The notes under the pieces were generated by a model. The model was not told where the DNA came from. It was given only the letters and a program-made list of their open reading frames with translations, and made no database searches. A stretch of 64,000 bases of DNA from Ginglymostoma cirratum (lineage: Eukaryota): assembly GCA_024137785.1 (NCBI GenBank), contig JAHRHZ010000040.1, positions 4,120,894-4,184,893 of the forward strand, read 5' to 3'. Shown piece after piece: positions 1-55,620 of the stretch. Within the stretch, counting starts at the first letter, position 1. The number at the start of each line of letters is the position of its first letter. Position numbers and translations under genes: made by a program.

Positions 1-657
1 GAGGCGAAGGAATTGGGAATAGGGGATGGCATTTTTGCAGGAGGGTGGGTGGGAGGAGGTGTATTCCAGGTAGCTGTGGGAGTCAGTGGGCTTGAAATGG
101 ACATCTGTCTCTAGGTGGTTGCCCGAGATGGAGACAGAGAGGTCCAGGAAGGAGAGAGAAGTGTTAGAGATGGTCCAGGTGAACTTCAGGTTGGGGTGGA
201 AGGTGTTGGTGAATTGGATGAACTGTTCGAGCTCCTCGTGGGAGCACGAGGCGGCGCCGATGCAGTCATCAATGTAACGGAGGAAGAGGTGGGGTTTAGG
301 GCCAGTGTAGGTACGGAAGAGGGATTGTTCCACATAACCTACGAAGAGGCAGGCATAGCTTGGACCCATGCGGGTACCCATGGCCACACCCTTTGTTTGT
401 AGGAAGTGGGAGGAATTGAAAGAAAAGTTGTTGAGGGTGAGGACGAGTTCGGCTAGGCGGATGAGGGTGTCGGTGGAGGGGGATTGGTCCGTTCTGCGGG
501 ACAGGAAGAAGCGGAGGGCCTTTAGGCCATCAGCATGGGGAATACAGGTATATAGGGACTGGACGTCCATAGTAAAAATGAGGTGTTGGGGACCTGGGAA
601 TTGGAAGTTCTGGAGGAGGTGGAGGGCATGGGTGGTGTCACGGACGTAGGTAGGGAA
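1..657 (-). mobile_element. Penelope-like element (Neptune-type), 5'-truncated; uninterrupted RT reading frame running off the window start
   Basis: Minus-strand translation PTYVRDTTHAL...FTMDVQSLYTCIPH...GVAMGTRMGPSYACLFVG...FLRYIDDCIG (YIDD at 276-265)...YTSSHPPSCKNAIPYSQFLRL, with no stop codon. Near-identical to the copy at 26064 where the two overlap. Confidence 0.93.
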
Positions 658-3778: not shown

Positions 3779-4119
3779 GAGATAAAAGGTACTGCAGATG
3801 CTGGAGAATCCGAGATAACAAGCATGGGGCTGGATGAACACAGCAGGTCAAGCAGCATCATAGGAGCAGGAAAACTTGACGTTTCGGGCCTAAACCCTTC
3901 ATCAGAAATGGGGGAGGGGAAGAGGGTTCTGAAATAAATAGGGAGAGAGGGGGAGGCGGATAGAGGATGGATAGAGGAGGGGATAGGTGGAGAGGAGGCA
4001 GACAAGTCGAAGAGGCGGGGATGGAGCCAGTAAAGGTGAGTGTAGGTAGGGGGGTAGGGAGGAGATAGGTCAGTCCAGGGAGGACGGACAGGTCAAGGGG
4101 GCGGGATGATGTTAGTAGA
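3779..4119 (-). mobile_element. PLE 3' end (young subfamily) with tail and hammerhead
   Basis: Essentially identical to 39122-39460. Begins gagataaaaggtactgcagatgctggag. Confidence 0.92.
3874..3909 (-). ncRNA. Minimal type I hammerhead ribozyme motif
   Basis: Minus strand reads ATTT-CTGATGA-A-GGGT(TTAG)GCCC-GAAA-CG-TC-AAGT: intact core, 4-bp helix II, palindromic ACGT in place of helix III, and 4-bp helix I. Predicted cut after GUC, between 3878 and 3877. Confidence 0.8.
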
Positions 4120-6285: not shown

Positions 6286-6804
6286 CCTTTTCTTCTCTAA
6301 TGTCTCCTAATTTTTAATAGCAAATGGGTCACCTCACAATTTCCTGCATTAAGCTTTGTTTTCCATGTGTGTCCTGATTCTACCAGCCGGTCTTGTTCTC
6401 TTGCAGCTTGTCTCTATTCCCCTCATGATCTACTGTACTCAAATATTTTGTGTGATCTGAAAATGTTGAGATTGTGCCATGTATATCCAAGCTTAGATAA
6501 CTCATATATGTCAAGAAAAGCAGCAGTGGTAACACTATTTCTTGGGGAAGGACACTATATATCTTCCACCAGCCAAAAGCAACTTTCATCATTACTCTCC
6601 ATTTCTTATCACTCAGCCAATATCACCAATATCATTATCTCTGATACAATATCATATCCATACTGTTCCTGTTTCTTTAGTTGCACAGGCTGATAAGTAA
6701 AGAGTAGGTGATGGCCTAGTGGTATTATCACTAGACTTTTAATCCATAGACCCAGATAATGTTCTGAGGATCTGGATTTGAATCCTGCTACAGCAGATGA
6801 TGGT

Positions 6805-7034
6805 GACAACAAGGTGTAGAGCTGGATGAACACAGAAGGCCAAGCAGCATCAGAGGAGCAGGAAAGCTGATGTTTTGGGCCTAGACACTTCTTCAGAAAA
6901 GCCTTCTGAAGAAGGGTCTAGGCCCGAAACGTCAGCTTTCCTGCTCCTCTGATGCTGCTTGACCTGCTGGGTTCATCCAGCTCTACACCTTGTTATCTCA
7001 GATTCTCCAGCATCTGCAGTTCCTACTATCTCTC
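6805..7034 (+). mobile_element. Fold-back (inverted-dimer) PLE mini-element with two hammerhead motifs
   Basis: Arm 6805-6898 is the reverse complement of 6904-6997, with a few mismatches. Unpaired tail 6998-7034. 15-bp TSD acagcagatgatggt at 6790-6804 and 7035-7049. Confidence 0.9.
6904..6936 (+). ncRNA. Minimal hammerhead ribozyme motif
   Basis: TT-CTGAAGA-A-GGGTCTAGGCCC-GAAA-CG-TC-AG. The variable core position 7 is A here. Confidence 0.7.
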
Positions 7035-10000
7035 ACAGCAGATGATGGTACTTCAATTCAAAATTAATCTTGAAATGACTTTAATGATGACCATGAAACC
7101 ATTGCTGATTGTCAGGAAAAACCCATCTGGTTCACTAATGACCTTTAGGGAAGGAAATCTGCCATTCATACCTGGTCTGGCCTACATGTGACTCCAGACC
7201 CACAGCAAAGTGGTTAACTCTTAACTAGCAATAAATAGTGATGCCCACATCCAATGAATAAAAAAAGTCCATTATGCATCACTTTAGCAAGTGTCTTTCC
7301 ACTGTCAATGTAAATCACATCATCTGTATTGCACTCCTCAATGCTCTCTGTTATGTTATCAAAAACTAACCCAAGTTAGTTAAACACACTTTGCCCTTAA
7401 CAAATCAGCAATGACTTTCCTCAATTAGTCCACATTTGCCCAAATTATTCTTTGTAAAAGTTTTCTTCCAAGGAGCATTGAAATAATTGGATTAGTAGGT
7501 GCACTTACTTTGACACCTCTTTTTGGAAGAAAATTCGTATACTGGCAATCCTCCAGTCCTCTGGAATCACCCTTGCAGCTGAAGAAATTGGAAGAATTCA
7601 GCTGGAGTTTCTGCAGTTTTCATTCACTTCCCTCAGTGTCTTTGGATGCATCTCCTTCTTTTGTAAAGGCATCTGAAAAGTAATGATTTAATATCTCAGC
7701 CACTTACCCCATCAACCCCCTTCAGAATCAAATCTAGTCATGCTTTCTCCCACTTTTAACTGGAAACATAGAGATGTAGAAAATTCTCCTGAACACAGTC
7801 CAGAAATTCTGGCCTCTTTCTGTCTTTTACATTGTTATCTCAGTCTATGTCAGGGCAACTAAATTGTCCCCTTATAACTGTCTTTAATTTTTGCATCTGT
7901 CAGTTATTTCCTTACAAATTTGTTTCTTCATTTCTTTCTCTCCAGTTGATAGCCATCAGAATACATTTAATGGGACCGGCTATTGTTTTATAGTTCAAAC
8001 CAAATAGATTCTGTGTCTGACTCCTTTAATATATCTTTTCTACTGCAGGTCTATAATATTCTCCTTAATCATACTGTGACATCTTTTACTTACTTTGCTT
8101 TCTTGTTTTTCCTGGGCATCTTATATTTAGCATCCAGTTTTCAAGCTAGGTCTCCGATATTGCTACAACATCTTATTCGTATGTCGTTATTTGTGCCAGA
8201 AGGTTAAAAGTATTTGTTTCAACTCTCTCTTCCACCTACCCTTTACACGTCTTATCTCTCCTAGATCTGGCCCTAATGTCCCTGGAAATTAAATCCCTCC
8301 CTCCTGCACCATCTCTTCAGTTACACACTCATCTGCTCAGTACTTTTATTTCTATACTCATTTGCACCTGGTTTTCCCATTGCAGCCTGACCAGGTTGCT
8401 GAGGGATCCAAAGATAAAAAAAGATAATGAGCTGCTCCTGGTAAGTTCAGCAGAACCTCTGCATTCCTGGAATTACCAATTTTATTCCAACAATCACTCT
8501 TCTCTGCTCACTCCATGACTGCCTTTAAAAATAATTTGGGGCCCATACCTAAACATCCTTGCTGCAGTACAATGATCAGGACTGGCATGACAACATCACT
8601 GCATTGCACAAACTCATTGAAGTAGATTTTCCAGCTGGGCCCAAAGGGACTGACAGCTTTTTTTAAAAATTGGAGTAGAAAGAAAAGGAGAAGCAGTATT
8701 GGGAATCAGACTAATAAGACAGCTCTGCGGGACAATGAGATCCTTCTGAAAATATCCAGTCACTGAGGTTATAGCTGTGTGCAAATTGGCTGCTAAATCA
8801 ACCTAGAAACAAGAAAAGAACTATAAAGTACACAAACAGACGCAGCAAGTTAAAATGACACCTACAAAAAACAGTCACTGAACTAAGTCTACCACAGTTT
8901 ATATTATAATTGATGCAAATTTCACTCGAAATCATTCACAAATTGCGAACTATGCGTATTTTATACTCTGAAATGACAATTGAAAACACAGAAGATGTAT
9001 GTCTAGTGAGGCTAGTCTGGATGGAAAGAGTGCCTCTTGTGCAACGGAGAATGCATTATTCAGCATCTACAGCAGCAGAAGAATGCACTGTCTTTTGGAT
9101 TGAATGCTTGCATGGTTCAACCATAGGTAAAACACATTTTACTCGTTGCTATGGATCTTGTGTATATCACTCCCCATTTGTCAAAGGTTGGGAATTACAT
9201 CTGAAACATCACACACCATTCTCCTGCTACATCAGATACTGATGAGTTGCTAACAGCCCCCTTACTTACTTCCAAATCTTTGAACATGAGCAACTACAGC
9301 ATCCAGAGGAAGAGGGTCCAAGATTTGAAGATCCCCATTTGAAAAGCAGGTTCTTGCAGCATCAGTATAAAGAAACAGACTTAATGTTTTACATTGGTGA
9401 CCTTACACTAGAACTGGGAAAAGCTCCCAAAGAAAGAGAGGTAATAGATTTTGAATAAGGGGCTGATAGGACAAGGACAAAGGAAATGTCTATAATCGGG
9501 TGAAAAATCAAGAGAGATAAAATGACAGGCACGTCTTTTTTCTCTGTTTCTTTTCTTGCCCCGTCACCTTTCTCTTTAGTCCTGAAAGACTAACTCAGCT
9601 GCCATTCAAACACTTCTCTCTTCTAGCCTGTCATAAATGTCCTTTTGTCTTTGTTCTGCCCATTCCTTGCTCGATGTCTATTATATCTATATTGTTTCCC
9701 AGTTCTAATTAGAAGTCCCAAGTTAGTTTCTCTTCACAAATGCTGCCATTTGCTATTTCATGCTCCCAGTTTGGCTGTTATCTAACAGGCATCTCATAAA
9801 GCAGCCACTGTGAAGGCTGGCAATGTAGTAGAGCCAAGGTTATAACATCCCTCCCTCTACAGCAAGTACCACAGGATGGCAATGAAATGGGAAACCTAAT
9901 GAATAGAAAATGAAATAAAATCATTTCCCATTGGCACAGCTCCAGCATTAAGCACAATCCTGCATCAAACAGAGAACAAATTCCTCCTGGAGGATTTGGC

Positions 10001-10335: not shown

Positions 10336-11397
10336 ATCGGTCCTTTTCAAATTGGCAGGCAGTAACAAGTCAGGTGTCAAAGGAATTGGAGCTGGAACTC
10401 TAGCTATTCACAATATATATTGACAATTTGGGTAAGGGAACAAAATGTAACATCTCCAAGTTTGCAGATGATACCAAGTTGGGTAGGAAGGTGAACTGTG
10501 AAAAGGATGCAGAGGTCCTTCAGCATGATCTGGACAGATTGGGTGAGTGGGCAAATCAATGGCAGATGCAATATAATTTGGATAAATGTGAGGTTATTCA
10601 CTTCGGAAACAAAAACAAGAAAGCACATTACTACCTGAATGGCTGTAAATTGGGAGAAGGGAGAGTGCAGTGGGACCTGGGTGTCCTTGTACTCCAGTCG
10701 CTGAAGGTAAGCATGCAGGTGCAGCAGGCGGCAAAGAAGGCAAATGGTATGTTGGCCTTCATTGCGAGAGGTTTTGAGTACGGGAACAGGGATATGTTGT
10801 TTCAGTTGTACAGGGTCTTGTTGAGACTAAGCCTGGAATATTATGTGTGGTTTTGGTCTCCTTTTCTGAGGAAGGATGCTCTTGCTCTCAAGGGAATGCA
10901 GCGAAGGTTTACCAGGCTGATTCTGGGGATAGTGGGTCAGACGTATAAGGAGCGATTGACTAGATTGGGATTATGTTCATTATTGTTCAGATGACTGAGG
11001 GGGGATCTCATAGAGACTCATAAAATTCTAACAGGACTGGACAGGGTAAATGCAGGGAGAATGTTCCTGATGGTGGGTGTGTCCAGAATCAGGGGTCACA
11101 GTATGAGGATTTGGGGTAGACGATTTAGGTCAGAGATGAGAAGACATTTCTTCACCCAAAGAGTGGTGAGCCTGTGGAATTCATTACCATGGGAAGTAGT
11201 TAATGCCAAAACATTGAATGTATTCAAGAGGTGACTAGATATAGCACTTGGGGCGAATGGGATCAAAGGTCATGGGGAGAAAGCAGGTATAGGTTATTGA
11301 GTTGGGCAATTAGCCATGATCGTGAAGAATGGCTGAGCAGGTTCAAAGGGCCAAATGGCCTCCTTCTGCTCCTATCTTCTAAGTTTCTGTGTTTCTA
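10336..11397 (+). mobile_element. CR1 LINE 3' fragment (RT C-terminus and tail)
   Basis: ORF 10428-10994: ISKFADDTKLG, WQMQYNLDKCEVIHFG, DLGVLV, KKANGMLAFI. Tail cctatcttctaagtttct. Confidence 0.93.
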
Positions 11398-21757: not shown

Positions 21758-22744
21758 ATGAGTTGTCCACAACTTGTGTTAATACCTATGTTTGTGTCGT
21801 TGGCAAATTTATTAATCATTCCTTTGGTCCTTTAATCCAATTCATTTCTGTAAATTATAAGCAGTTGATGCCGCAGCACTAATCCCTGTGGCTTGTCAAC
21901 CAGAAAATAACCGATTTGTGCCTGCTCTCTGTTTCCAGTTAGCTAGCCATTCTTCTATCCATGCCAGTCTGTTATTTCCAACACCATGAGCTTTTATTTT
22001 TAAAGGACCAAAGCTCACTTTTGTTAACATTTTTATTTTTAGAAATATTTATTTAACCTCGCACTAACAGTTTTTATATCTCAGCTAACTTGTTCTAATA
22101 CTCTAAATGTTCCCTTCTTATTAATCTTTTAGTCATTCTCTGATTGTTTTATTCTGTTCAGTCTCTTGACCTGCCACAAATATTTCCACAATTATGTATT
22201 TTTTCTTTAAGTATTTGGTTAACCATGCATGGTAGGTCTTCTACTTGGAATTTTTTTCTTATTGAAATGTATCTATTTTGCGTACTCTGAAATATCTTCT
22301 TAAAGATTTGATACTATTTCTCTATTGAATTATCTCTTTACCTAATCTGCTAGCTCACTGCTGTCTTTACTTCCATGTCCTTGTAACAGCCCTTATTAAA
22401 TTTTAAACTACTATTCTTCTTCCCCTCAAACTGAACGTAAAATTCAATCACATTATTGTTGCAGTTACCTATGGTGCCTTCATTAATGTTTATTAATGAA
22501 TCCTATCGCATGGCATAACACTATACTTAGTCTAACCTGCTGTTTTGTTGGCTGCAGAACGTGCTGTTCTAAGAGACTATTCTGAAAATATTCTGTCGTC
22601 TGTTTATTTGCGCTATCTTTGATCATCTGTTTTTTCCCAGTCAATTTATAAATCAAGATCCCCATGACCATCGAAACACTTTCTGACAAGCTCCCACTAT
22701 TCCTTCCTTTATACTGCATCCTCCCAGGTTGTTATTATAATGTG

Positions 22745-22960
22745 GAGGAGCCAGTGTTAGACTTGGGTGGACTAGGTCAAAAGTCACATGACACCAGGTT
22801 GTAGTCCAACACGTTTATTTGAAATCACAAGCTTTTGAAGCGCTGCTCATTCGTCAGGTGACGAAGGTGATGTTCATCTGACAAAGGGGCAGCACTCCGA
22901 AAGTTTGTGATTTCAAATAAACCTGTTGGACTATAACCTGGTGTCATGTGACTTTTGACC
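22745..22960 (-). mobile_element. Fold-back mini-element of a second family with two decayed hammerhead motifs
   Basis: 22775-22861 is the imperfect reverse complement of 22874-22960, with a ~30-nt extra tail at 22745-22774. Arm consensus is CAC-CTGACGA-A-GGAGC(AGC)GCTCC-GAAA-GC-TT-GTG. Confidence 0.8.
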
Positions 22961-25029: not shown

Positions 25030-26064
25030 TGTTGATCCCTTCACACATGAACTAGCCTATCTACTTTGTCCATCTTGCCTGGTCAGAGGAGATTAATTAC
25101 CATCAGTTAAGGTTGGAGTGGTTAATTTTATGATTTGCTGGCTAAAGGTTAAACCTCCAACTTGTTTAGTTTGCATTGTTTGGATAGTTTTTAAATAGCT
25201 AGTTGGTAATTGGCTTAACCCATCACTGCTGAATTTCACAGAAGGCCTTAGAAATAAATCCCAAACACAGAGTTAAACTTCCTCAAACCATTTTTGGGTT
25301 AGAACAGAAACAGAGGCAAATTAATGGAAAGTAAGTTGTGATTCAAGACTTTTTTCCCTAAATTAGTTAAAAAGAAGATTTTGTTCCCATTTACTAAATT
25401 CTTTAATCAATTTACATTTGATACGCAGCCTTTGTTCTATTTTTTCCTGCACAGCTTTTACATGAGAAAGAAATTAATTGCAGCACTAAACTGAAGAAAA
25501 AATTAAATATGCAAAAATCAGAAGGTTAAAAAAAGGCACTGATTTAACTTACATTGGTTGGATTCTCTTCAAAAGATGACCTTGAAACATAATCACTCTA
25601 ATGAGTTAAAATATTCATTTTCACAAATGAAACAGTAATCAAGTCAGTTTCAAAAAGCACCATTAATGAGCTTTTCCTTTGATTGGATATGTCCTGATAT
25701 ATTAATCTACAGGAGGTACCTTCTAGCTGAGACCACCCCATGCCTGCTCATTAGCTGACCTAGCAAGAGACTAATTTGAATGTTTTTGATAAAAATTTCA
25801 AGGAATTTTTACTTTAGCAGGATTTCAGCCAATACCAGTAACTTCTGTACAAGTAAACTGTACTTTTTGTAAAGTTAATTAATAGAATTTGAGGATCATA
25901 CACTGAAAAGTATTGTCATGCAGAATATCTAAAAGCAGCTCCGCCTCAGCATAATCATTGATGCACAGAACAGTAAATTTTGTTGGCAGACGGCTTATTG
26001 ACAATAAACGATTTGAGACTGCTATCTGATTAGACCATTACAGGACAACCAGAGCAATTTACAC

Positions 26065-27168
26065 TGCATCAGCGCCACCTCGTGCTCCCACGAGGGGTTC
26101 GAACAGTTCATCCACTTCACCAACACCTTCCACCCCAACCTGAAGTTCACCTGGACCATCTCCAACACTTTTCTTTCCTTCCTGGACCTCTCTGTCTCCA
26201 TCTCGGGCAACCACCTAGAAACCGATGTCCATTTCAAGCCCACTGACTCCCACAGCTACCTGGAATACACCTCCTCCCACCCACCCTCCTGCAAAAATGC
26301 CATCCCCTATTCCCAATTCCTTCGCCTCCGCTGCATCTGCTCCCAGGATGAGACATTCCACTCCCGTACATCTCAAATGTCCTCATTCTTCAAGGACCGC
26401 AACTTTCCCCCCACAGTGGTCGAGAACGCCCTCGACCGTGTCTCCCGCATTTCCCGGAACACATCCCTCACGCCCCGTCCCCGCAACAATAACCAAAAAA
26501 GAATCCCCCTCGTCCTCACATACCACCCCACCAACCTCTGGATCCAACGCATCATCCTCCGACACTTCCGCCATCTGCAATCAGACCCCACCACCAAAGA
26601 CATTTTTCCCTCCCCACCCTTATCTGCCTACCGGAGGGACCACTCCCTCCGCAACTCCCTTGTCCGTTCCACACTCCCCTCCAGCCCCACCACACCCGGC
26701 ACTTTTCCTTGTAACCGCAGGAAGTGCTACACCTGCCCCCACACCTCCTCCCTCACCCCAATCCCAGGCCCCAAGAAGACTTTCCACATCAGGCAGATGT
26801 TCACCTGCACATCTGCCAATGTGGTATACTGCATCTGCTGTACCCGTTGTGGCTTCCTCTACATCGGGGAAACTAAGGGGAGGCTTGGGGACCGCTTTGC
26901 AGAACACCTGCGCTCAGTTCGCAACAAACAACTGCACCTCCCAGTCGTGAAACATTTCAACTCCGCCTCCCATTCCTCAGATGACATGTCTATCCTGGGG
27001 CTCCTGCAATGCCACAGTGATGCCACCCGAAGGCTGCAGGAACAGCAAATCATATTCAGCCTGGGAACCCTACAGCCCAATGGCATCAATGTGGATTTCA
27101 CAAGCTTCAAAATCTCCCCTCCCCCAACCGCATCCCAAAACCAGCCCAGCTCATCTCGACCTCCCTAA
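26065..27168 (+). CDS. PLE polyprotein C-terminal part: RT thumb, Cys linker and GIY-YIG endonuclease (5'-truncated, no native start)
   Basis: The frame is open from 26065 (CISATSCSHE...FLDLSVSI...) through track ORF 26377-27168, which contains CNRRKCYTC, NVVYCICCTRCGFLYIGET, RFAEH and LQPNGINVD. Confidence 0.9.
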   Translation, partial: CISATSCSHEGFEQFIHFTNTFHPNLKFTWTISNTFLSFLDLSVSISGNHLETDVHFKPTDSHSYLEYTSSHPPSCKNAIPYSQFLRLRCICSQDETFHSRTSQMSSFFKDRNFPPTVVENALDRVSRISRNTSLTPRPRNNNQKRIPLVLTYHPTNLWIQRIILRHFRHLQSDPTTKDIFPSPPLSAYRRDHSLRNSLVRSTLPSSPTTPGTFPCNRRKCYTCPHTSSLTPIPGPKKTFHIRQMFTCTSANVVYCICCTRCGFLYIGETKGRLGDRFAEHLRSVRNKQLHLPVVKHFNSASHSSDDMSILGLLQCHSDATRRLQEQQIIFSLGTLQPNGINVDFTSFKISPPPTASQNQPSSSRPP

Positions 27169-27453
27169 CCTGTTTTTCCTCTCACCTATCCCCTCCTCCC
27201 ACCTATCCCCTCCTCCCACCTCAAGCCACACCCCCATCTCCTATCTACCAACATCATCCCGCCCCCTTGACCTGTCCGTCCTCCCTGGACTGACCTATCT
27301 CCTCCCTACCCCCCTACCTATACTCACCTTTACTGGCTCCATCCCCGCCTCTACGACTTGTCTGCCTCCTCTCCACCTATCCTCTCCTCTATCCATCCTC
27401 TATCCACCTCCCCCTCTCTCCCTATTTATTTCAGAACCCTCTTCCCCTCCCCC

Positions 27454-27489
27454 ATTTCTGATGAAGGGTCTAGGCCCGAAATGTCAAGT
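27454..27489 (+). ncRNA. Hammerhead motif with CpG-decayed helix III (ACGT to ATGT)
   Basis: ATTT-CTGATGA-A-GGGTCTAGGCCC-GAAA-TG-TC-AAGT, about 290 nt downstream of the ORF stop. Confidence 0.7.
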
Positions 27490-27964
27490 TTTCCTGCTCC
27501 TATGATGCTGCTTGACCTGCTGTGTTCATCCAGCCCCAAGCTTGTTATCTCCAATTTACAATGGGACTAGGTAGATAGACTGCGCTGATGGCAACATGTT
27601 TACACTTCTACTATCTTCTACCCTGTCCTGTAGAATGTATGTTGGCAGGGGAGCGCTTAATCATGCTGGAGGATGACAAGTGGGGATCGCGCTATCTGCC
27701 TAACTCCTCCTGATTCAGTTCATTCCGTCCTGCCACTAGTAGAGGCCCTTAGGTGGGTAATTAACTATCCTATTAAGTGCCCCATATCATCGCCACTCAA
27801 CATCAACACAACAGTGGGTGGTGGGTCTGCCATATTTGGAGCATGATGAGCAAACCTTTATATGTTTGCTTGCAGGCTCCCAGGGTGGATGGTGCTGCTA
27901 GGGTTGAAAGAGGAGGAGGGGTGTTTCTTACTTAAAGGCACTCAGCTCCTGCACCTGCTGCAAA

Positions 27965-28047: not shown

Positions 28048-29139
28048 CTGTAATCACTCATCTGTGCCTGGGTCCCTCTGCAATCCAAGGACAAAGATGG
28101 GTGCAACATTGATATCAGTCACTGCTTCCTTGGTTGCAACACTGAGTGCAGAATTGTGGCAGCCTTTCAGCAGGTCAGCTATCCACTCTAAGCTCCTTGA
28201 TTCTGGGGAACTCTGCTACTGGACTGTCAAGCACCTGTTCAACATGAGATGAGGTGGGCTATCTCCAACGGACGTCACTCAAAGATCTTGTTTCCTCTCT
28301 ACTGAGAACATCACTGTTTCCACATGTTTCCATTTGGATGTTCCCTCACTGATAGGGTTTAATTTTGAATCAATGGGAACATCAAGGGATAAGGTGAAAA
28401 TACAGGAAAAGAGAGATCAGGCAAAGATTAGTCATGATTTGGAATGAGCCGGGCCACATTACAAGTTGTTTGCTGAAAGCACAGTTACTCATTAGTTTGT
28501 TGAAATAGCTGCATCCATGCAAAAGCATTGCTTGATTAATAGTTCTTTCACTTGATTAATTCTGTAAATTACATAATATTCATTTGCACAAGATAAAGAG
28601 ATGTCAAGTAGTTGTGCTTTCTGTTATTGAAACTTTTATGGGGCTATAGTGAAAGGAATTTTAGATTAAAAAAAAACTATAAAGTTATGAATGAATGACC
28701 AGAAAAAATTGCTTGTTGTCAAAAAACCGTCCACTAACAAAATTTACCGTTCCGTGCACCAATGATTATGTTGAGGTGGCGCTGCTTTTAGAGATACTTC
28801 GTGACTATACTTTTCGGTGTATGATCCTATGAACCCTATAATATTGTCATTATAGGGTTCATAGGTTCCATACAGAGAGTATACTATGTTTAATAAGTGT
28901 TTAAGTGTTAAAGCTTGACTTAGAGGATATAAAGGACTGTGGGTGCCATGTACCATGTCTCCTCGAAAAGCTGACCCAAATCCATGAACATTGCAGTGTG
29001 CTAGGAGATGCCCTATCAGGAGTGCATGGTGTGGGCTTGTTACATGAGCTTGCCTTCACTCTTATCCCATGGTTCTGGTACTGAGAATGGAACAGAGAAT
29101 CGTGTTTTCAGGGCTGGGACTTCATTTTTAATGGCAAAT

Positions 29140-36754: not shown

Positions 36755-39121
36755 TTGTGGATAGGATAATAAAATCAAAGTTTTGTTAATGATAACTTGT
36801 TACATGGCTTCAGATACTTTTATAGATGGTTTAGAAAATGTCTTCAATCATATCACCTTTAATCTTTTTTGCTGTTGGAGCATATATTCTTCAGCCTTCT
36901 GTTTGTGAAAACCACTTTCCAATTAGAAAATGTGCAATGCAGTTCACTATCATAGTCTATGCATTCCATATACACTTATTTCGTAGAATGTGACCCTTGT
37001 TTATCCTAGCATCTGAAATATTGCCTCAAGATGAGCATAGTGTCCAGTCAAATTCATTGTTGCTGTTGCGTCATTGCCTTAGTGTTCATGGATTGTTTCA
37101 ATACTTTGTAAGGCTGATGGAATTAGTTTAGGTCTCAAAGCCAAGTTTGCACTGTCATCTGTGGCTCAAGTAATCTGGGAAAAAATGGACGGTTTTCAAA
37201 TGAGAGCATCAACTGTTCATTGGGAGTAACAATGAAGTTGGACCTCAATGTGAGTTACAGCTGTCAAAACAGGGGATGAAGTAAAAAGAACACCTTGTAG
37301 CTTTAACCATTACTCTTGAAGTTAGTAAGGTACTTACTGGACAGAAGTTCTAATAGAGTGGCAATAAAAATAAATGCAAATAATCTTTCCAAGATCAAAC
37401 CTATAGTGTAGCAATATCAAACCCAATGATTTACAGAATCCAGTAACAGAATTATCGTTATAATTCAGAAGTTGTGAGTGCAGTGAGACGATCCAGTGCA
37501 GTGAGACAACCACTACTTAAAACAGTTTATATGTTTCGAACTCTATGACATTCTTACTATTCATCAAAAGACCAAAAATCAAAATTGAGTTATCTCCTAA
37601 ATGAAATTATTTTATGACCTCAATCTGACATTCAGTTACCAACCTGTTGCTCTTTCCATGTTCCTACGCAGGAATATTGTTTGATGTTAAAAAAAATCAA
37701 AAATACCTGTCTTTGGTGAATTATGGTTTTAACGTCTGATTTGAATACCTGGAAAAGTCTTGAATATTTATGACAAATGGAAGAATTTATATACTTCAGT
37801 ATGCATAAGTGTGACTTTTTTAGATTGCAATTCCTAAAATAATTGTATTTTTAACTTAGACAACATACATTTGTAATCAAAAGAGATACTGACCCTTTTC
37901 ATAAATTTCCAGGTACCGGAGGGTCACTTAGCACAAGTTGTGAAAAAAACAGATTGTGCCTGAAGACTTAATTATCTATATTCTCTAAGATACATCTGTT
38001 AGCAATATGGGATTATACATGTCAAAATGACAGATAGGAGTTGAATTTGTGCAAGTGTGTCTAACCAGGATCATCTACATATCAGACATTTGAAAATCTC
38101 GGACGTGCTGACATTAGAAATATAAGGTTGCAATTAATTATTGCTAGGATGAATCATAATTTCCTTTCACCTTAAGTACACCTCAGAAAGATCTGTAACT
38201 GTTAGCTTCACTTTTGCTTAAACAAAAAAAAGTACCAGGCAAAAAAAAACTTTTCCTTTACATTTGCAGCTAATTACTGATTTCCAATTAATAGGCTTCA
38301 GCATTTAACCTTTGGAGGATGAGATCTTTCCAAGTTAGTTTGCATATATTAATATGCAGATGGTAATTATACCTCCAGAGAAGGTACGTTCTGCATGGTG
38401 ACTAAAGGCCACATCTTTAATTTCTTTTTAATTTGAAGCTGCAGCTTCAGGTCTATCACTGTAACATGCAACTCTCGATGATTATTATTTAAAAAGACAA
38501 ATTCTGTTTTTTGGTCAGACAACCAAGATTGCTGCTTTAAAGCAACAGTGTTCTTTGTTGGCTGTTGTAAGTCTCCATTTTCACAGTTGCAAAGTAAACA
38601 TCCTCTGTTGTACCAAACTGTTATCACATTACTTAGATAATTTAATTCACCAGAGAAAAGTAAACTGCATCAAATATTTTGGCTGTTTATTTGGAAGGTA
38701 TCCAGCAAGACTGTATATTATTCTAAGTAGTTTAGAATTTTCTGTATTTGGAATGATTACATAATCATTATATTAATTATTACATAATACTAAATCAACT
38801 TAAAACATTTTATAGACATAAAGTATACTTGTACAAAATAAATGGATAATTGGCCTCAACAAATGCTTTGGCTGGACTAAATTGATAAAGCCGCAAGCTG
38901 TACACCACTGCAGATTTAATCTTCAGGTGTTTAACGGTAACCTAATGTTACAAAATAATTCAAACATGTTAAAAATTAAAAAAATTAGATTGATAAATTA
39001 TTGGTGCTAGAAAATACATTACTTAATGTGAATTAGATGACTTTCGTGCATTTTAGATGAAACTTTAGAATTGTTGGTCTTTGTTCTTTTACAAATTTCA
39101 GGACAAATATCAAATATTACT

Positions 39122-40047
39122 GAGATAAAAGGTACTGCAGATGCTGGAGAATCCGAGATAACAAGCATGGGGCTGGATGAACACAGCAGGTCAAGCAGCA
39201 TCATAGGAGCAGGAAAACTTGACGTTTCGGGCCTAAACCCTTCATCAGAAATGGGGGAGGGGAAGAGGGTTCTGAAATAAATAGGGAGAGAGGGGGAGGC
39301 GGATAGAGGATGGATAGAGGAGAGGATAGGTGGAGAGGAGGCAGACAAGTCGAAGAGGCGGGGATGGAGCCAGGAAAGGTGAGGGTAGGTAGGGGGGTAG
39401 GGAGGAGATAGGTCAGTCCAGGGAGGACGGACAGGTTAAGGGGGCGGGAGGATGTTAGTTGATAGGAGATGGGGGTGTGGCTTGAGGTGTGAGGAAAAAC
39501 AGGTTAGGGAGGTGGAGATGAGCTGGGCTGGTTTTGGGATGCGGTTGGGGGAGGGGAGATTTTGAAGCTTGTGAAATCCACATTGATGCCATTGGGCTGC
39601 AGGGTTCCCAGGCTGAATATGATTTGCTGTTCCTGCAGCCTTCGGGTGGCGTCACTGTGGCATTGCAGGAGGCCCAGGATGGACATGTCATCTGAGGAAT
39701 GGGAGGGGGAGTTGAAATGGTTCGCGACTGGGAGGTGCAGTTGTTTGTTGCGAACTGAGCGCAGGTGTTCTGCAAAGCGGTCCCCAAGCCTCCGCTTGGT
39801 TTCCCCGATGTAGAGGAGGCCACAACGGGTACAGCGGATGCAGTATACCACATTGGCAGATGTGCAGGTGAACCTCTGCCTGATGTGGAAAGTCTTCTTG
39901 GGGCCTGGGATTGGGGTGAGGGAGGAGGTGTGGGGGCAGGTGTAGCACTTCCTGCGGTTACAGGGAAAAGTGCCGGGTGTGGTGGGGCTGGAGGGGAGTG
40001 TGGAGCGGACAAGGGAGTCACGGAGGGAGTGGTCCCTCCGGAAGGCA
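39122..40047 (-). mobile_element. 5'-truncated PLE (GIY-YIG, 3' UTR and tail); intact hammerhead at 39217-39252
   Basis: ORF 39504-39851 reads VYCIRCTRCGLLYIGETKRRLGDRFAEH. 3' end is nearly identical to 3779-4119. Confidence 0.94.
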
Positions 40048-42994
40048 AATAGACATCTGCCCCCGGGCTTGCATTTTACCCAATCTGTCCCAGACAGCCT
40101 TTTCCTGGTTCAGTTGCAGCCAATGGTTGCTGGAGTCCCAGAAGTTCAGTGAATTTAATCCAATGTCATTTCCACAACTTCTGCCTACAGAGGGTTTTAA
40201 GTGCAGGGTCTGTGCATAAACTGATGGGGATTTTTGTCTCACCTTACATTACTTAAAAATAATTAACTTTGAGGAGAAGGCCATTAAGTCATTGAAGCTC
40301 ATTCTTATAATATTGTAACACACCAACTACACAACTGCTCCTTGAATTCCTGAAATGCTTTTGTATCATCAATAATATATGAGAATATTTTAAATATTTA
40401 ACACACTGTGGATAAAAACAATCTTCCCAATAGCTGTTCTAAAATAACAGAGTCATCCCGAGCTAGTTAGTATTTCAGGTTGTTAAGTTTCCATAAGAAT
40501 GTTGTGATGAAGAGTTAGAAATATTGTGGGCAGTATTTCCCCTCCCTGTTGTGAAGTGAGCAATAGCAAGGAAGTTGGGAAAATACAGAGTGAATGAAGA
40601 AAATCAGAGCCATAACAACTGAAATTCTTTTTGCTGTTGTCCCCTCAAACCTTAAATGGTGGCTCCAGAATCTTGTTACCTTGCATTTGCCCCTCTTTAA
40701 AGCGCCTTATGTATATAGCAATGGTTACTTGCCTTCAATAAATATTTTGGCTGGTCTAAATTGAGAAAAATGCAAGAAGGTTTGATTTTTTTCTAATTCT
40801 GTAAGAAAGTAGATGGAGTATTTTGTTGACATGCAAATCAAAACAGATAGCCAGCAGCTGTAGCTTGCCGACTATTTGCCCTGGCCATCATCTAACTGCT
40901 TCTTCACAACCATATCCCAGCATGGTCCATGGCCAACATCCTTCTTGACCCAATGTCCATGCATGTTGGCATCAGCAAATTACCAGCCTCAACATGTAAC
41001 TGTGCCTGCTCTCAGACCAACTCAGACACCTCTTCAGCCCTTTAGCACTTTACTTTGAAGGCAAGGGACACCAATATCTTCCATACTTGTGCCAAATCGC
41101 TTTGCGTGCAGCGACACACATGCTTCTTGTGCATTTCGTTGTGTGTATTTGTTCAATGGATGTGGGCATTGCCAGCTCGGTCAGCACCTATGGCCAAACC
41201 TTATTGCTCTGGAGACAGTGGTGAGCTGCCTTCTTGAAATGCTGCAGTGCTGAGGTGTAAGAACACCCATAGCTGTATAGGATCATCTTATGGCTCTCAA
41301 CTTGCTTTTTTAGTTCTCAGTCACTTTGGTACTTAATTGGAGGCTGCCAGCCTCTGTTTACTTCACATTATTTCCTTATTGTGGACTCACTGAATTCAGC
41401 ACTGACGTATGGACTGTTAGCGTTCTTTGCATACAGGTCTTTACTGTTCATTTCTGGGCTGCCAGGCTTTGTGGCCTGCATTGCCTTTGAGTGCAGAGGG
41501 AGTGACAGGCAATTTGTGATGGTTGAGAGCACTGAATAGGTAAAAAGGTGGCTATGTTATCGTGTGGTACTGTGCTACATAATCATCACGTCTGTAGCAT
41601 GTGTCAGTAGTTTACATTGTAAACACAACACTTGTGCTTCAAAATGTTGGCCATGTGTGAATCTCTTAGGGACACAATCCTTAATGTGTGAAGTGGAGCT
41701 ACAGTCAGTCAGAAGTCACTCAAATGACTTCTTCAATTCAAGTCCAGAACTTTAGCCATGATTGGTCAGGTGCTTGCTCTTACTGGAAACCTACCAGGAT
41801 TTGTGTTCTTGCAGTCATGGGATTGGGCTACAGTCAGTCCTGTAGGACAAACGCTACCATTCTGGGGATTACAGATGCATCAGTCAGTGTGTAATGGAGC
41901 AATCAAACTGAGGCTTTATTGGAGGGGTGAGACAGGAAGAGGGATGGAGGGGGAAGAGGGATGGAGAGAGAGGAGCAGTAGAGAAAAAGTTCCTGCAATG
42001 AGCTAAGGAGAGAGATTGAGTAGATGGAAGAACAATTAGTGGTGATGCATGACCAGGAAAATTATGGTGGGGACAATGATTAATTTGGGAGGATGAGGTT
42101 GGTGAGCGTTGTTGAGCGGAGATGCTGGATGCTACACTGCAAGTTGTAGTCCATGAACCTTAATGCAATATATGTGCTTTGAAAGAGTTAGAGTGAGTGG
42201 TGGCACTGAGTGTGAGATATCAGAAAATGGTGGCACTGGGGAAAAGCTGCCCAAGATACTGGTTGCTTATCTGAGGAGGTTAAAAGCAGAAGATAACATG
42301 AGAAAAGTAGTTCTGAGCCATGGCAGAGTAGGTACCACGAATTTCACTCAAGAAAACATTTTAACTGAAAATGGAGAAGTCTAAAACTTTCTCTCTCAAT
42401 TGATGCTGGCTAGTCTGGTCAGCATTTTTAGCACTTTTTTTTGTTTTATTCTCTGCAAGCGCAGTACTTTTGTTTTGTTTTTGTAGAGATCTAGAATACT
42501 GGTTAATACAAAGGATCTCAAATCCCATTGAGAACAGACGGATAATCATATTCACCTATTATAGGAAATCTTGGAGAAAACTCCAAATACTGTAACAGTG
42601 GGACAATGTTGCTCCAACTGAGAATTACTAATTGGAGGAATGAGGCCTGTTCAGTCCAAAGAGAGGCAAAAGAAAACAATACCTGTCAATCCTTTCAGAG
42701 TTTGTTTTCCTTATAATTAACTTGATGGAGAAACTATTAACTAACAAGTCTACTTATTGGCTTTATGTAGGCTTTCAAAGGATTACATATAGTCTGTGGG
42801 ACAGAAACAAGTCATTTGGACCAGCCAGTCCATGCTATGTTTGTAATTCATTTGATCTTCTTACTATCTTTTTGAATCTAAATCCATTATTAGAACTCTC
42901 TATTCACTTCATCCTCATGAACTTCATTTAGCCTCCCCTTAATTATATGTGCAGTATTCACTTCAATCTTTTGGTAACAAGAGCCACGTTTACA

Positions 42995-47208: not shown

Positions 47209-47517
47209 ATTGTTCTTGAATAGGAGTCCAAAATGGGCAATTGTAAATCAGTTGCATTGTAAAACCTCGCCCTATTCCCTTTAACATTGCCTTCAGCACT
47301 GATGTCCATTTTTTCTCTGTAACCCTATTCTAAATCTAGCTTTAAGATTTCATATTTCATTGCTTTAAATTTTTGCATGGTTTGCATCATTTTGCATTGA
47401 CAAGAAGTTTCCCGCTCATTTTGTGAAATGCCTAGGAAGATCCAGTAATAGTGTATTAAAGCTCTTAAGTTGTAGGATTATTGAAATTGTGGTGAGCAAA
47501 GTAATTTGTGTGTGGTA

Positions 47518-47746
47518 ACAAGCATGGGGCTGGATGAACACAGCAGGTCAAGCAGCATCATAGGAGCAGGAAAACTTGACGTTTCGGGCCTAAACCCATC
47601 ATCAGAAAAACTGGGTTTTCTGATGAAGGGTTTAGGCCCGAAACGTCAAGTTTTCCTGCTCCTATGATGCTGCTTGACCTGCTGTGTTCATCCAGCCCCA
47701 TGCTTGTTATCTCGGATTCTCCAGCATCTGCAGTACCTTTTATCTC
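47518..47746 (+). mobile_element. Near-perfect fold-back PLE mini-element with two hammerheads (47574-47609 on -, 47616-47651 on +)
   Basis: Arms 47516-47609 and 47616-47709 are reverse complements with one visible mismatch. Spacer is actggg and the 37-nt tail is 47710-47746. 16-bp TSD taatttgtgtgtggta at 47502-47517 and 47747-47762. Confidence 0.93.
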
Positions 47747-49555
47747 TAATTTGTGTGTGGTACTTGGTAAAGGAATTGGGTAGGTTAGAACCATGGTAAG
47801 TGATGGCTGCAACATATTCCTCTTCCTCCCTTGGTACTGTGACACTCCTATTCTCTTCACTTCAAACTCTAAACCTCTCTCTCGCTGTTCAGAGCACCAT
47901 TACAACCTTCACTAAAAACTTTCCACCTGTTTCCTGCTTCCAATATCCTCAAGGTGTTTTCATACCTTTCAATATTTTATTTTGTTTCTTTATGCCTTTT
48001 GATTTAGATCCTTTGGTCCATATTTCCAAATTTTTTTCCTGCCTCTAGCAGCCTTCTGCCTCCAGGTCAAAAAAATGGTTGTGTGCTGTGAGCATGCAAT
48101 TTTGGAAGAAGCAAAATCAAAAGGCTGATTTCAAAATAAATATTTGAATACCAATCTTCTTCACTTCCGGGCTCCGACTCTTTATGTTGTGCCCGCACTT
48201 TTGATTTTTTTTTCTTTTTATTACCATCATGCACCACTCTTAAGGCCTTCTCCACGGGTTATGCTGGTCAATTGATTTTTTTTCAGAGATGTACATTGTG
48301 GCCTCACAGAAGAGAATCCGTGGTCAAAAAATTTCAAAGACTTCTTTCATCCTGGGCATTGTCTCCTGTCACTGCCTCCCCACATTGCCAAACATCCCTT
48401 CTGTTGCTTACAATAAAAATAGAAAATAGAAGTAAAAATTCTCCTTCTCAGAACATTTAATTTATTAGGGATATTAATGGAAAACAGTGGGGATGTTGTA
48501 ATAAAAATGGAATTGTTCATTGGTAGCAGCAGATATGGAGGTTGAAATCCAAGTTAATCTTTCAAATGAGTAGTCACCAAACTGACACAATGAATTGAGC
48601 CTTCCTTTGGGCTCAGAAAAATCAAAACTGGACATTTACAAATTTTGGAAACCGTACACTCAACACATCTGGGACTACACATGCCACTTTTGCCCTCACG
48701 CTGGGACTGGTGTGTCTGTGCAATTTGTGAACTATACTAGACTCCGTGAGACATGTGGATGCAGAGACTATATGACATAAAGTAGGAGAAAATAGTTTAC
48801 ATTCTTTGGGGGAGAAAACAAATGACATAATCTGACAAAAACTTTGATATCATTATAACTGAGAAAAAGGATGCATTCCACCATGAAAAAAACCCTGCCA
48901 AATTATTAGCATTACAGCAGCAAATCTGAAACCACATCAAAAGGGCACAATACATGCAACTATCATTTATTTCAGATGAGTGGAATGTTTACTGTGCTAA
49001 AATAGATTAGTACTTGAACCTCAGCTAAGCATTGTTACTGGTCACTGATGTCCAGATGATAGATTGCTTTTTGGGAGGCAAAACAACAGAATCCTCTTAT
49101 TTTAATTTCAAAGCAGAGAATTTTTCAATCAATGTAAAGAAGCAGGGTTAGCTTTATGTTTCAAGAATGAAAACAGGTCTTATTGTTAGCCAGAACCAGT
49201 TAAGTCATGGTGGAAAGCAACATAGCAACACATGCTGAAAGGCCATTTTGTCATATTTTGCACTGCATTATAAATCTTTCTCCATTCGAAAAGTTTTGCA
49301 ACATATTTGAAAGAATACACAGGCTGGTCATTTTAAGGATCAACTTACCTTTAAAGGACAGATCCCTATGATGAATTGCAGCATGGAAAACAAATCTATG
49401 TAATAATAAATAATATATTAATGGCACTCCTTCTCTTCCAGTATGTTCCAGATTCCTTCACAGTCTTCTATTTTCTCTGAAAACTCTCAAACCTGGCGTG
49501 CTTTTAATGGAATTCCTTCATCACTAAATGAAAATGGCATGTGCAGGAAGATCTG

Positions 49556-54096: not shown

Positions 54097-55620
54097 GCAT
54101 GTCTGGAGAAACTCAGTCAGTTTAACATCATCTGTGGAGAGAGAAAACTAGAGTTAACACTTCAAGTCCAGTGACCCTTTGTCAGAACTGAAAACAGCAG
54201 AGAAATGGTGACATTTATGCTGATGACAGGAGGTGAGGTTGGACTGGGTAAAGGAGTGAGTCAAACAAATGGAGATGGTGCCGAGAGACAGGGAGAAAAA
54301 AGGGAAGCAGACAAATGGATTACTGATAATAAGGTGGGAGAGAGATGCACACTGAATGGATGTTAATGGGAAGTATGTGCTGGCACCAACTCATACAGAA
54401 CAGGATTTTGGGATGTGGAGGTAGGTAACAAACATAGAGGAAGGTGTTCATTCTCAGAAATTGTTAACCTCAATGTTGAATACTGAGGCTTGTTAGGTAT
54501 CTAGGGGAAGATGGGGTATTGTTTCTCCAGCTTGTGTTAAGCTTTTCTGGAGCATTGCAGCAGACCTGAGACAGAAATGTTGGTGTGGGAACATGCTGGT
54601 GTGTTGAAAGGGCAGGCAACTGGAAGCTCAAGGTTCATTTTTACAGACAGAGTGGAGGTGCTGCACAAAATGTTCACCCAGTCTTCACTTTGTCTCTCCA
54701 GTATACAGAAGACCACCTGGGAAGACTAAATTGAATGAGGTGCAGATAAATTGCTACTTCACCTGGAAGGCGTGTATGGGGCCTTGGATAGTGTGAAAGG
54801 AGGAGGAAAACAGATAGGTACTACATCTTCTGCAATTGCATGGGAAAGTAATGTGGGAATGTGAGAAGGTGTTGGGAGTGGAGGAAGTACAGACCAGAGT
54901 GTCCCAGACAGAACGATCCCAGCAGAAGGCTGACAAAGGAAGGGAGAAGCATATGTTACAGAGATAGTAGGAACTGCTGATGCATTTCTGGAGAAGGGTC
55001 TAGACCCGAGGCATTCCTGCTCCTGTGATGCTGCTTGGCCTGCTGTGTTAATCCAGCTCTACACCTTGTTATCTCTGGAGAAGAATATGTGTTTGGTGGT
55101 GGCCCCACACTGGTGGAAAATGGAAGCTTATGATCCTTTGAAGCGGAGGCTGCTGGTCAGTGAGGGCTAGGGGTATCCTATCATTGTTGTGGGAGGAAAG
55201 GGAATGGGTGAGGGCAGAAGTGGGGGAAATGGATCAGATATGGCTGAGGGGCTCTGTCAACCACAGGAGCAGAGAATCCTCAGTCAAGGAAACAGGTGAG
55301 CTTTTCTCAGATTTCCTGCAAAAGGTGCAATCATCTGAACAGATTCTACGAAGATGGAGAAACTGGGAGAATGGAATGGAGTCTCTACAGGAAGCAGGAT
55401 GTGAGGACGTACAGTTGAGGTAACTGTGTGAGTCGGTGTGTTCGTAATGGATATTGGTGGACAGCCTATCACCAGGAGCAGAAACAGAGAGGTCGAGAAA
55501 GGGAATGGAGCAGTCAGTGACGAACCATATGAAGGAGTGAGCTGGGTAGAATTGGAAGCAAAATTGATAAAGTTTTCCAATTCCAAGCAAGAGAGGGAGC
55601 CAGCATCAACAATATCATCT
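54097..55620 (-). mobile_element. Older, frameshifted PLE of a third family; decayed hammerhead at 54153-54188
   Basis: IPFLDLSVS...TDSHSYLNCTSSHPASCRDSIPFSQFLHLRRICS and TFPCNCRRCSTY. The 3' end reads GTT-CTGACAA-A-GGGTC(ACTG)GACTT-GAAG-TG-TT-AAC. Confidence 0.85.
54957..55076. mobile_element. Internally deleted fold-back PLE mini-element nested in the older PLE
   Basis: A minus-orientation tail (gagatagtaggaactgc) is joined to a plus-orientation arm (atttctggagaagggtctagacccga...ttgttatctc). 14-bp TSD ggagaagc/aatatgt at 54943-54956 and 55077-55090. Confidence 0.8.

Follow-up and report, generated by a model that had tools for sequence, protein, structure and literature searches.

What kind of event sets two copies of the end of a retroelement head to head at a single genomic site, and does the product go on to move by itself? 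This question is raised by a 229-bp insert of a Penelope-like element (PLE) in a 64,000-nucleotide stretch of a Ginglymostoma cirratum contig, the whole of which is referred to here as the window. An earlier note had described the insert as a near-perfect palindrome of about 94 bp with two opposed hammerheads, a 37-nt one-sided tail and a 16-bp target-site duplication (TSD), and each of these claims is borne out by our analysis. The TSD is an exact direct repeat, TAATTTGTGTGTGGTA, and the head-to-head arms (47516-47609 and 47616-47709, 94 nt each) are complementary at 93 of 94 positions (99%). The component parts are as follows.

47502-47517, plus strand: left copy of the TSD, its last TA common with the inverted arm (from comparison of the repeat and flanks).
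47516-47608, minus strand: inverted arm, that is, an inverted pseudo-LTR (pLTR), running between the 5' strand of the hammerhead's stem I and site 1 (...CTTGT/TA), a putative internal priming site of the element, with no tail.
47575-47608, minus strand: minimal type I hammerhead, C3 at 47605, with a change at 47598 (motif read against the description in the accessible text of PMC4209133).
47609-47616, no strand: 8-nt junction, AACTGGGT, with no match to the parent element.
47617-47713, plus strand: direct arm (pLTR), from the 5' edge of the hammerhead to site 1, with the same sequence as the young long copies.
47617-47650, plus strand: minimal type I hammerhead, C3 at 47620, predicted cut after 47647 (sequence motif).
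47710-47746, plus strand: one-sided tail, from site 1 to site 2.
47747-47762, plus strand: right copy of the TSD.

When every 229-nt interval of the window was scanned, only the interval bounded by the TSD had an exact 16-mer in common between its 60-nt flanks, and the chance expectation is about 2e-6 per interval. A single TSD around the whole unit upholds the proposal that it arrived in one insertion event. Positions 47617-47746 are identical at 130 of 130 positions to the ends of two longer copies (3779-3908 and 39122-39251), which places the insert in the youngest subfamily seen in the window and confirms that it consists of the last 130 nt or so of a young PLE together with an inverted copy. 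All bases except the 8 junction letters are traceable to the 3' end of this window repeat. The tail measures 37 nt past the mirror point of the arms and 33 nt past the end of tail-less copies. No long open frame runs across the unit, and its translations gave no meaningful match to 90 homologues of the parent protein (best E 0.62). A tRNA-derived SINE was considered and rejected; PLE sequence accounts for the whole insert, and ARAGORN reported no tRNA genes in the window, a search that a decayed tRNA-like SINE head could escape.

The plus-strand hammerhead has a stem I of UUU/AAG, the core CUGAUGA at 47620-47626, stem II at 47628-47639, GAAA at 47640-47643 and a palindromic ACGU, and only 14 nt separate its C3 from that of the opposed motif. 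The sole mismatch between the arms, at 47598, falls on the unconserved base after A9. The motifs resemble the minimal hammerheads of metazoan PLEs, as set out in the accessible text of PMC4209133, in their CUGANGA and GAAA elements, the unpaired base after A9, G10.1-C11.1, the palindromic 15.2-16.2 region and the short stem I. No hammerhead match was returned by Rfam at E<=1, and its four matches were all to microRNA-precursor models; the fold-backs at 6809-6993 and 47579-47648 score against such models with a best E of 1e-16, below the gathering score. Read as RNA, the insert has a predicted fold of -188 kcal/mol (z = -24), and none of 200 shuffles was equally stable. The note had foreseen a hairpin transcript bearing a sense hammerhead. 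The hairpin is real in silico, but in the predicted fold of either transcript the opposite arm pairs with the whole of the hammerhead (stem II probability 0.0), so that the hairpin transcript would bury the motif and would not be a working ribozyme.

The repeat family to which the insert belongs (family A) is present at 11 loci with 13 arms in the window, a count made with a 131-nt unit as query that leaves out copies without the unit and very short arms. Two of its long copies are informative about the parent.

39122-40051, minus strand: young-subfamily long copy, 5'-truncated, with the tail and a GIY-YIG coding region.
26064-27551, plus strand: longest copy, tail-less, with a 9-bp TSD; its ORF covers the end of the reverse transcriptase (RT), a CX4CxxC linker and GIY-YIG.

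GIY-YIG (PF01541) scored above the Pfam cutoff in both long copies tested. The ORF of the long copies has 90 longer homologues, mostly annotated with the PF00078 RT and matching with E values as strong as 2e-133, and the best by identity (70% over 54% of the query) is a Chiloscyllium punctatum protein, in line with a shark host. Ahead of the nuclease the window ORF carries the CX4CxxC linker CNRRKCYTC, a motif found in 75 of the 90 homologues. According to the accessible text of PMC8557442 and PMC3846280, a CX2-5CxxC linker between RT and endonuclease (EN) occurs in Neptune and not in Penelope or Poseidon, and the former source gives Nematis the same linker. Grouped by this linker motif alone, the parent is of the Neptune or Nematis type and not Poseidon.

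Other repeats are also present in the window. PLE coding fragments lie at 1-266 (minus strand, truncated by the edge of the window and with 96% identity to the 26-kb copy) and at 55237-55605 (minus strand, older, similar by eye), and LINE-type RT fragments with PF00078 matches lie at 1388-2251 and 10404-10994, among many decayed LINE pieces in the window. A further hairpin at 28810-28885, with arms of about 37 nt, closes off a 123-nt repeat that has its other copy (25892-26014; 84%, inverted) just before the long PLE copy; a motif scan of these two intervals found no hammerhead core.

The general layout of the insert is a familiar one. Typical EN+ PLE insertions carry an inverted pLTR beside a direct pLTR, an optional tail of 30-40 bp and a TSD (accessible text of PMC3846280 and PMC8557442), and the insert is like those described by Arkhipova et al. 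(2013) and Craig et al. (2021) in its inverted copy, one-sided tail, single TSD and pLTR hammerhead. Its parent encodes RT and GIY-YIG, its tail of 33-37 nt is on the right arm only, and its inverted copy is adjacent within one TSD. Unlike a typical insertion, it has neither an ORF nor a second direct pLTR. Pairs of minimal hammerheads on opposite strands are described in Schistosoma at a spacing of 100-700 bp (Cervera and de la Pena 2014, PMC4209133, accessible text), whereas the motifs of the insert lie 14 nt apart and its transcript is predicted to pair them away. Non-LTR retrozymes are ORF-less, PLE-derived tandem direct repeats with two same-strand hammerheads (bioRxiv 10.64898/2026.07.22.740005, accessible text). 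The insert shares their lack of an ORF, their PLE origin and a type I hammerhead; we reject its identification as a retrozyme, as none of the 20 TRF rows gives a tandem array at the locus and the hammerheads are on opposite strands. For a possible link to Eulor repeats, the accessible text of PMC5753468 and PMC9004415 offered no support.

The insert is not alone. Three further head-to-head inserts that are TSD-bounded or symmetric occur in the window, near 6.8, 22.7 and 54.9 kb.

6790-7049, plus strand: older-subfamily fold-back of family A, with a right-hand tail and a 15-bp TSD (6790-6804 and 7035-7049).
22738-22960, minus strand: fold-back of family B, an unrelated hammerhead-bearing family, with the tail on the left.
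54943-55090, plus strand: reciprocal product, an inverted tail end of about 24 nt plus a tail-less direct arm from the 5' edge of the hammerhead.

The arms of the 6.8-kb fold-back are identical at 83 of 90 positions and meet at the same position as those at 47.5 kb, with different junction letters. In the family B fold-back TCAC, which forms the 5' strand of stem I, is where the arms meet, with a 12-nt spacer that seems to hold a short templated insertion; this junction edge was set by symmetry, the parent being outside the window, and neither a clear TSD around 22738-22960 nor any further family B copy in the window was found. The 54.9-kb locus has a 14-bp TSD with one mismatch (13/14), and its arms, the short inverted tail and the tail-less arm, do not overlap. 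The TSDs of the three head-to-head family A loci are thus 16, 15 and 14 nt long, and those of simple copies 7-10 nt or absent. Bases diagnostic of a subfamily agree in each fold-back with the subfamily to which it belongs. Over their common core, the arms at 47.5 kb match young long copies at 90/90 and 89/90 positions, as against 75-79 of 89 for the older fold-back. The autonomous lineage has therefore given rise to the fold-back form on at least two occasions, and family B has done so too. Beyond the window, pattern scans for families A and B gave 0 loci in viral, metagenome and genome contig collections, and a 21-nt match in a bacterial contig was rejected as chance, with no similarity by eye past the pattern; a search of sequencing runs yielded, among the matches listed, none with half the query words and none recorded as RNA.

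The inner junction of these loci has a fixed position. All seven hammerhead-bearing arms, five of family A and two of family B, stop 2-5 nt before the CUGANGA core, and the five family A head-to-head arms keep 3, 3, 2, 3 and 5 templated nt upstream of C3, taking the long young copy as reference. The other eight family A arms stop within the hammerhead (four) or at 214-1394 nt upstream of C3 (four), so that 0 of 13 stop in the interval from 6 to 213 nt. Under a best-case geometric length model, a crude null applied to a small sample, three further loci would land within a single 4-nt window with a probability of about 4e-6; the data come from one 64-kb window with 11 family A loci and one family B locus. 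Published PLE inverted copies vary in size (accessible text of PMC2377424), whereas the arms in the window stop within 2-5 nt of one landmark in two families. Between a stereotyped and a random fold-back point, which the note had posed as alternatives, the former is found at 4 of 4 head-to-head loci in the window. The placement of that point immediately 5' of CUGAUGA was close, the junction being near the core, but three templated T upstream of the core are retained on each arm at 47.5 kb and 8 non-parent nucleotides lie between the arms. The added letters number 8, 4, 12 and 0 and differ at all four loci, so that the shared spacers expected of independent propagation are not seen within this window. 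An extra G at a junction is, from L1, a signature of the cap; no uniform extra G is present at these junctions.

What, then, sets the junction? The predicted ribozyme cut (GUC, after 47647) lies about 31 nt downstream of it, and ribozyme cleavage is therefore rejected as its maker. Annealing of two cDNAs at palindromes of the element is rejected too: it would centre the junction in stem II or in ACGU, and the junction is elsewhere. The Penelope transcript of D. virilis has its start some 120 nt upstream of the hammerhead, a distance made up of 46 nt and a 75-nt intron (PMC2377424), and the intron ends at helix I (PMC4209133; both from the accessible text), which makes the hammerhead edge a processing boundary. 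Here there is no AG at the edge. A splice acceptor of the D. virilis kind at the junction finds no support, the nearest upstream AG ending 24 nt before C3. The long copies do contain a pyrimidine tract leading to TTTCAG (39272-39300, minus strand), 23 nt upstream of the hammerhead core, which resembles a 3' splice acceptor and may be that of an intron of the element's own. The literature covered yielded no account of fold-backs that lack an ORF and have their junction fixed at the edge of the hammerhead; it does not extend to Repbase, Dfam or the older subscription papers on PLE structure, and the fixed stop may already be known to specialists.

The outer ends are also defined by the element. 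Fourteen family A ends are listed, of which seven are at site 1 (...TTGT/TATC/TC) and seven at site 2 (...TATCTC/T), about 33 nt beyond; in the 47.5-kb fold-back one arm ends at each. We also compared contigs from four runs of other organisms with the linear copy 39060-40160, considering 24 of 3750 loose-end rows and 15 of 342 joints. In these related species the loose ends cluster at the tail end, site 2 (at least 463 in run X1 and at least 98 in X14). Two of the 15 joints join opposite strands, both within the ORF region (39576/39619 and 39679/39728), which indicates that inversions arise elsewhere in the element too. Among the same 15 of 342 joints none is an opposite-strand joint at about 39251, and among the 24 of 3750 loose-end rows none matches that position. 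Depth falls across the hammerhead edge in X14 and not in the other three runs; contig depth is not copy number, and the fall was given no weight.

We hypothesize that the insert is a dead-end product of one event, made anew each time by an autonomous Neptune-type PLE, and we consider this the probable origin. It joins one TSD, two head-to-head pLTR copies, two element-defined outer ends, a fixed inner end and added letters. The priming model is taken from PAc, a protein of the Poseidon clade from Anolis carolinensis, and is applied here to a Neptune-type family. In vitro, both strands of the target are cut and extended by PAc (Frangieh et al. 2024, PMC11167929), which begins synthesis at two sites inside the RNA, one on either side of the tail, and has no need of hammerhead cleavage, uncut hammerhead RNA serving as template. 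Trimming the RNA's 5' side gives shorter products, and PAc requires RNA as far as +172 (the ORF's first 172 nt), yet starts at +111-118 (PMC11167929, accessible text, for all of these properties). The window family is like PAc in its two sites around the tail and its AT-rich targets and, on the model proposed here, would also be like it in cutting and extending both target strands and in using uncut hammerhead RNA as template, but differs in having a Neptune-type Cys linker, whereas the ORF of PAc starts in the hammerhead. Complete head-to-head products or a fixed stop are not described for PAc in the accessible text of PMC11167929.

By analogy with PAc, the GIY-YIG domain would nick both target strands about 16 nt apart, and each nicked 3' end would prime RT inside the RNA, one at site 2, giving rise to the tail, and the other at site 1. 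Synthesis of both cDNAs would then halt where hammerhead stem I begins on its 5' side, a step less certain than the priming steps, and the two cDNA ends would be united by end-joining with the addition of 0-12 letters. The template may be one RNA copied twice or two RNAs. We see an even case for a stop by run-off, in which the template RNA begins at the hammerhead edge; a less favoured possibility is that RT is blocked, either by the hammerhead or by the long C/U-rich tract that lies behind it. An RNA 5' end is the simplest account because the limit is a hard upper one with nothing just beyond it. Such a start would not be general among Penelope elements, since that of D. virilis lies about 120 nt upstream. 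Once formed, the insert should not move again, because it has no RNA downstream of the tail and its transcript would mask both the ribozyme and site 1.

The joining step has a precedent in L1 twin priming, where two target nicks prime two cDNAs, at the poly(A) tail and at a chance internal match, that are then joined head to head. The 54.9-kb locus has the same non-overlapping form, whereas the arms of the fold-backs overlap fully and start at element-defined sites. Because the arms at 54.9 kb do not overlap, two priming events would be needed there, and copying of a hairpin cannot produce this locus.

RNA structure around the start sites can be predicted in both families. Positions 47666-47672 are predicted to pair with 47722-47728 in an arm:tail stem that encloses site 1, and a stem around site 1 is predicted for family B as well (22738-22862, minus strand). 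The 7-bp arm:tail helix was matched by 145, 162 and 208 of 2000 shuffled tails (7-10%) and is not significant singly; its resemblance to the stem-loop start site of PAc is suggestive only. In the young subfamily the tail end (47735-47744) is also predicted to pair with the hammerhead core (47622-47631) over 10 bp, with nine pairs at p of at least 0.98 and one at 0.57, a stem II p of 0.004 and an overall fold z of -0.6, and this pairing is absent from the predicted fold of the older subfamily. The helix could keep the 5' hammerhead uncut in the young subfamily, or it could be chance.

The fixed stop also admits a more speculative and rather doubtful reading, that the fold-backs are fossil strong-stop cDNAs of a Penelope cycle with a cDNA jump and terminal redundancy. 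The RNA would have the upstream hammerhead's 5' edge as its start, where the parent reads CCCATTT, a fit to an initiator consensus, and RT would prime about 95 and 130 nt inside and run off. A productive cDNA would jump to the RNA's 3' end, cut by the downstream hammerhead, and the 31 nt or so from the stem I edge to the cut would be terminally redundant, comparable to R in LTR elements. A fold-back would arise if both strands ran off and neither jumped.

Other origins have to be weighed against a dead-end product formed anew. The note had left the choice between an abortive product and a mobile unit; a stereotyped abortive product fits, and the mobile unit is disfavoured. The insert would be such a unit if a PLE protein bound the hairpin transcript in trans and copied all of it, junction included, which we judge improbable. 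Precedents exist, in that pLTR sequences sufficed for mobilisation in trans in rotifers (PMC3846280) and vertebrate PLE-derived non-autonomous retrozymes are described, including one from a cartilaginous fish (bioRxiv 10.64898/2026.07.22.740005; both from the accessible text). Fold-backs are common in the window (three hairpins in 64 kb), and in related species a derived joint of unspecified kind, 39212 -> 39170, recurs with the same 11 letters in two runs at depths of 611 and 923, so that some rearranged forms may be multicopy, as far as depth, which is not copy number, can indicate. However, the junctions differ at 4 of 4 loci, weak evidence for rare subfamilies as it comes from the window only, and the arms at 47.5 kb resemble the older fold-back less than they do the young long copies. 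The end of the inverted arm is site 1, a point that read-through copying would reach only by coincidence; PAc requires RNA 3' of the start site (PMC11167929, accessible text), and no sequence of the insert lies 3' of the tail; and the hairpin is predicted to hide both site 1 and the hammerhead. A snap-back of one strand, in which the cDNA stops at the hammerhead edge, primes itself and is copied while a short second priming adds the tail, seems to us no less improbable. Palindromic head-to-head junctions of rotifer Penelope elements have been read as self-priming (PMC3846280, accessible text), the added letters at 47.5 and 6.8 kb permit one more base pair around a small loop, and CGAAGG within the family B spacer matches, by eye, the sense core after TGA as a fold-back extension would. 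Yet a single extra base pair is within chance, the junction letters are unpaired in predicted DNA folds, and snap-back alone would not make the two arms end at different sites, 1 and 2, nor yield the non-overlapping arms at 54.9 kb.

Loss rather than failed synthesis is a still fainter prospect: an insertion of the form [inverted pLTR][pLTR-ORF-pLTR][tail] might have lost its ORF by recombination between the direct pLTRs while keeping the TSD. A length of about 95 nt is rather small for repeats to recombine efficiently, the insert, with one difference from the parent across both arms, is very young, and none of the four long copies in the window has a pLTR at its 5' end. The product would be identical in sequence, the full layout is typical, and solo pLTRs have been put down to recombination or deletion (PMC3846280, accessible text); a fixed 5' edge of the pLTR would still be required. 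An artefact of assembly or of library fold-back is very improbable, given the exact TSD, the asymmetric tail, the non-palindromic junction and the one arm mismatch, and given old, decayed examples of the same layout with arm differences of 7/90 and 10/87.

The layout of inverted pLTR, tail and TSD is already published, and the insert itself is ordinary retroelement debris. The fixed stop, however modest, is a testable clue to the PLE replication cycle, for the origin of PLE pseudo-LTRs, tails and inverted copies and the role of the hammerhead are still regarded as unsettled (PMC11167929 and PMC8557442, accessible text). Inserts of this kind are a countable, genome-scale readout of where cDNA starts and stops, and the stop is not the ribozyme cut. 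Three hairpins in 64 kb suggest that there are many per genome. Because the fold-backs score against microRNA-precursor models, false microRNA calls are likely to arise from them, and when transcribed they would possibly form real dsRNA. The strong-stop reading, if true, would account for the formation of pLTRs and would give the hammerhead a role that needs no circular RNA.
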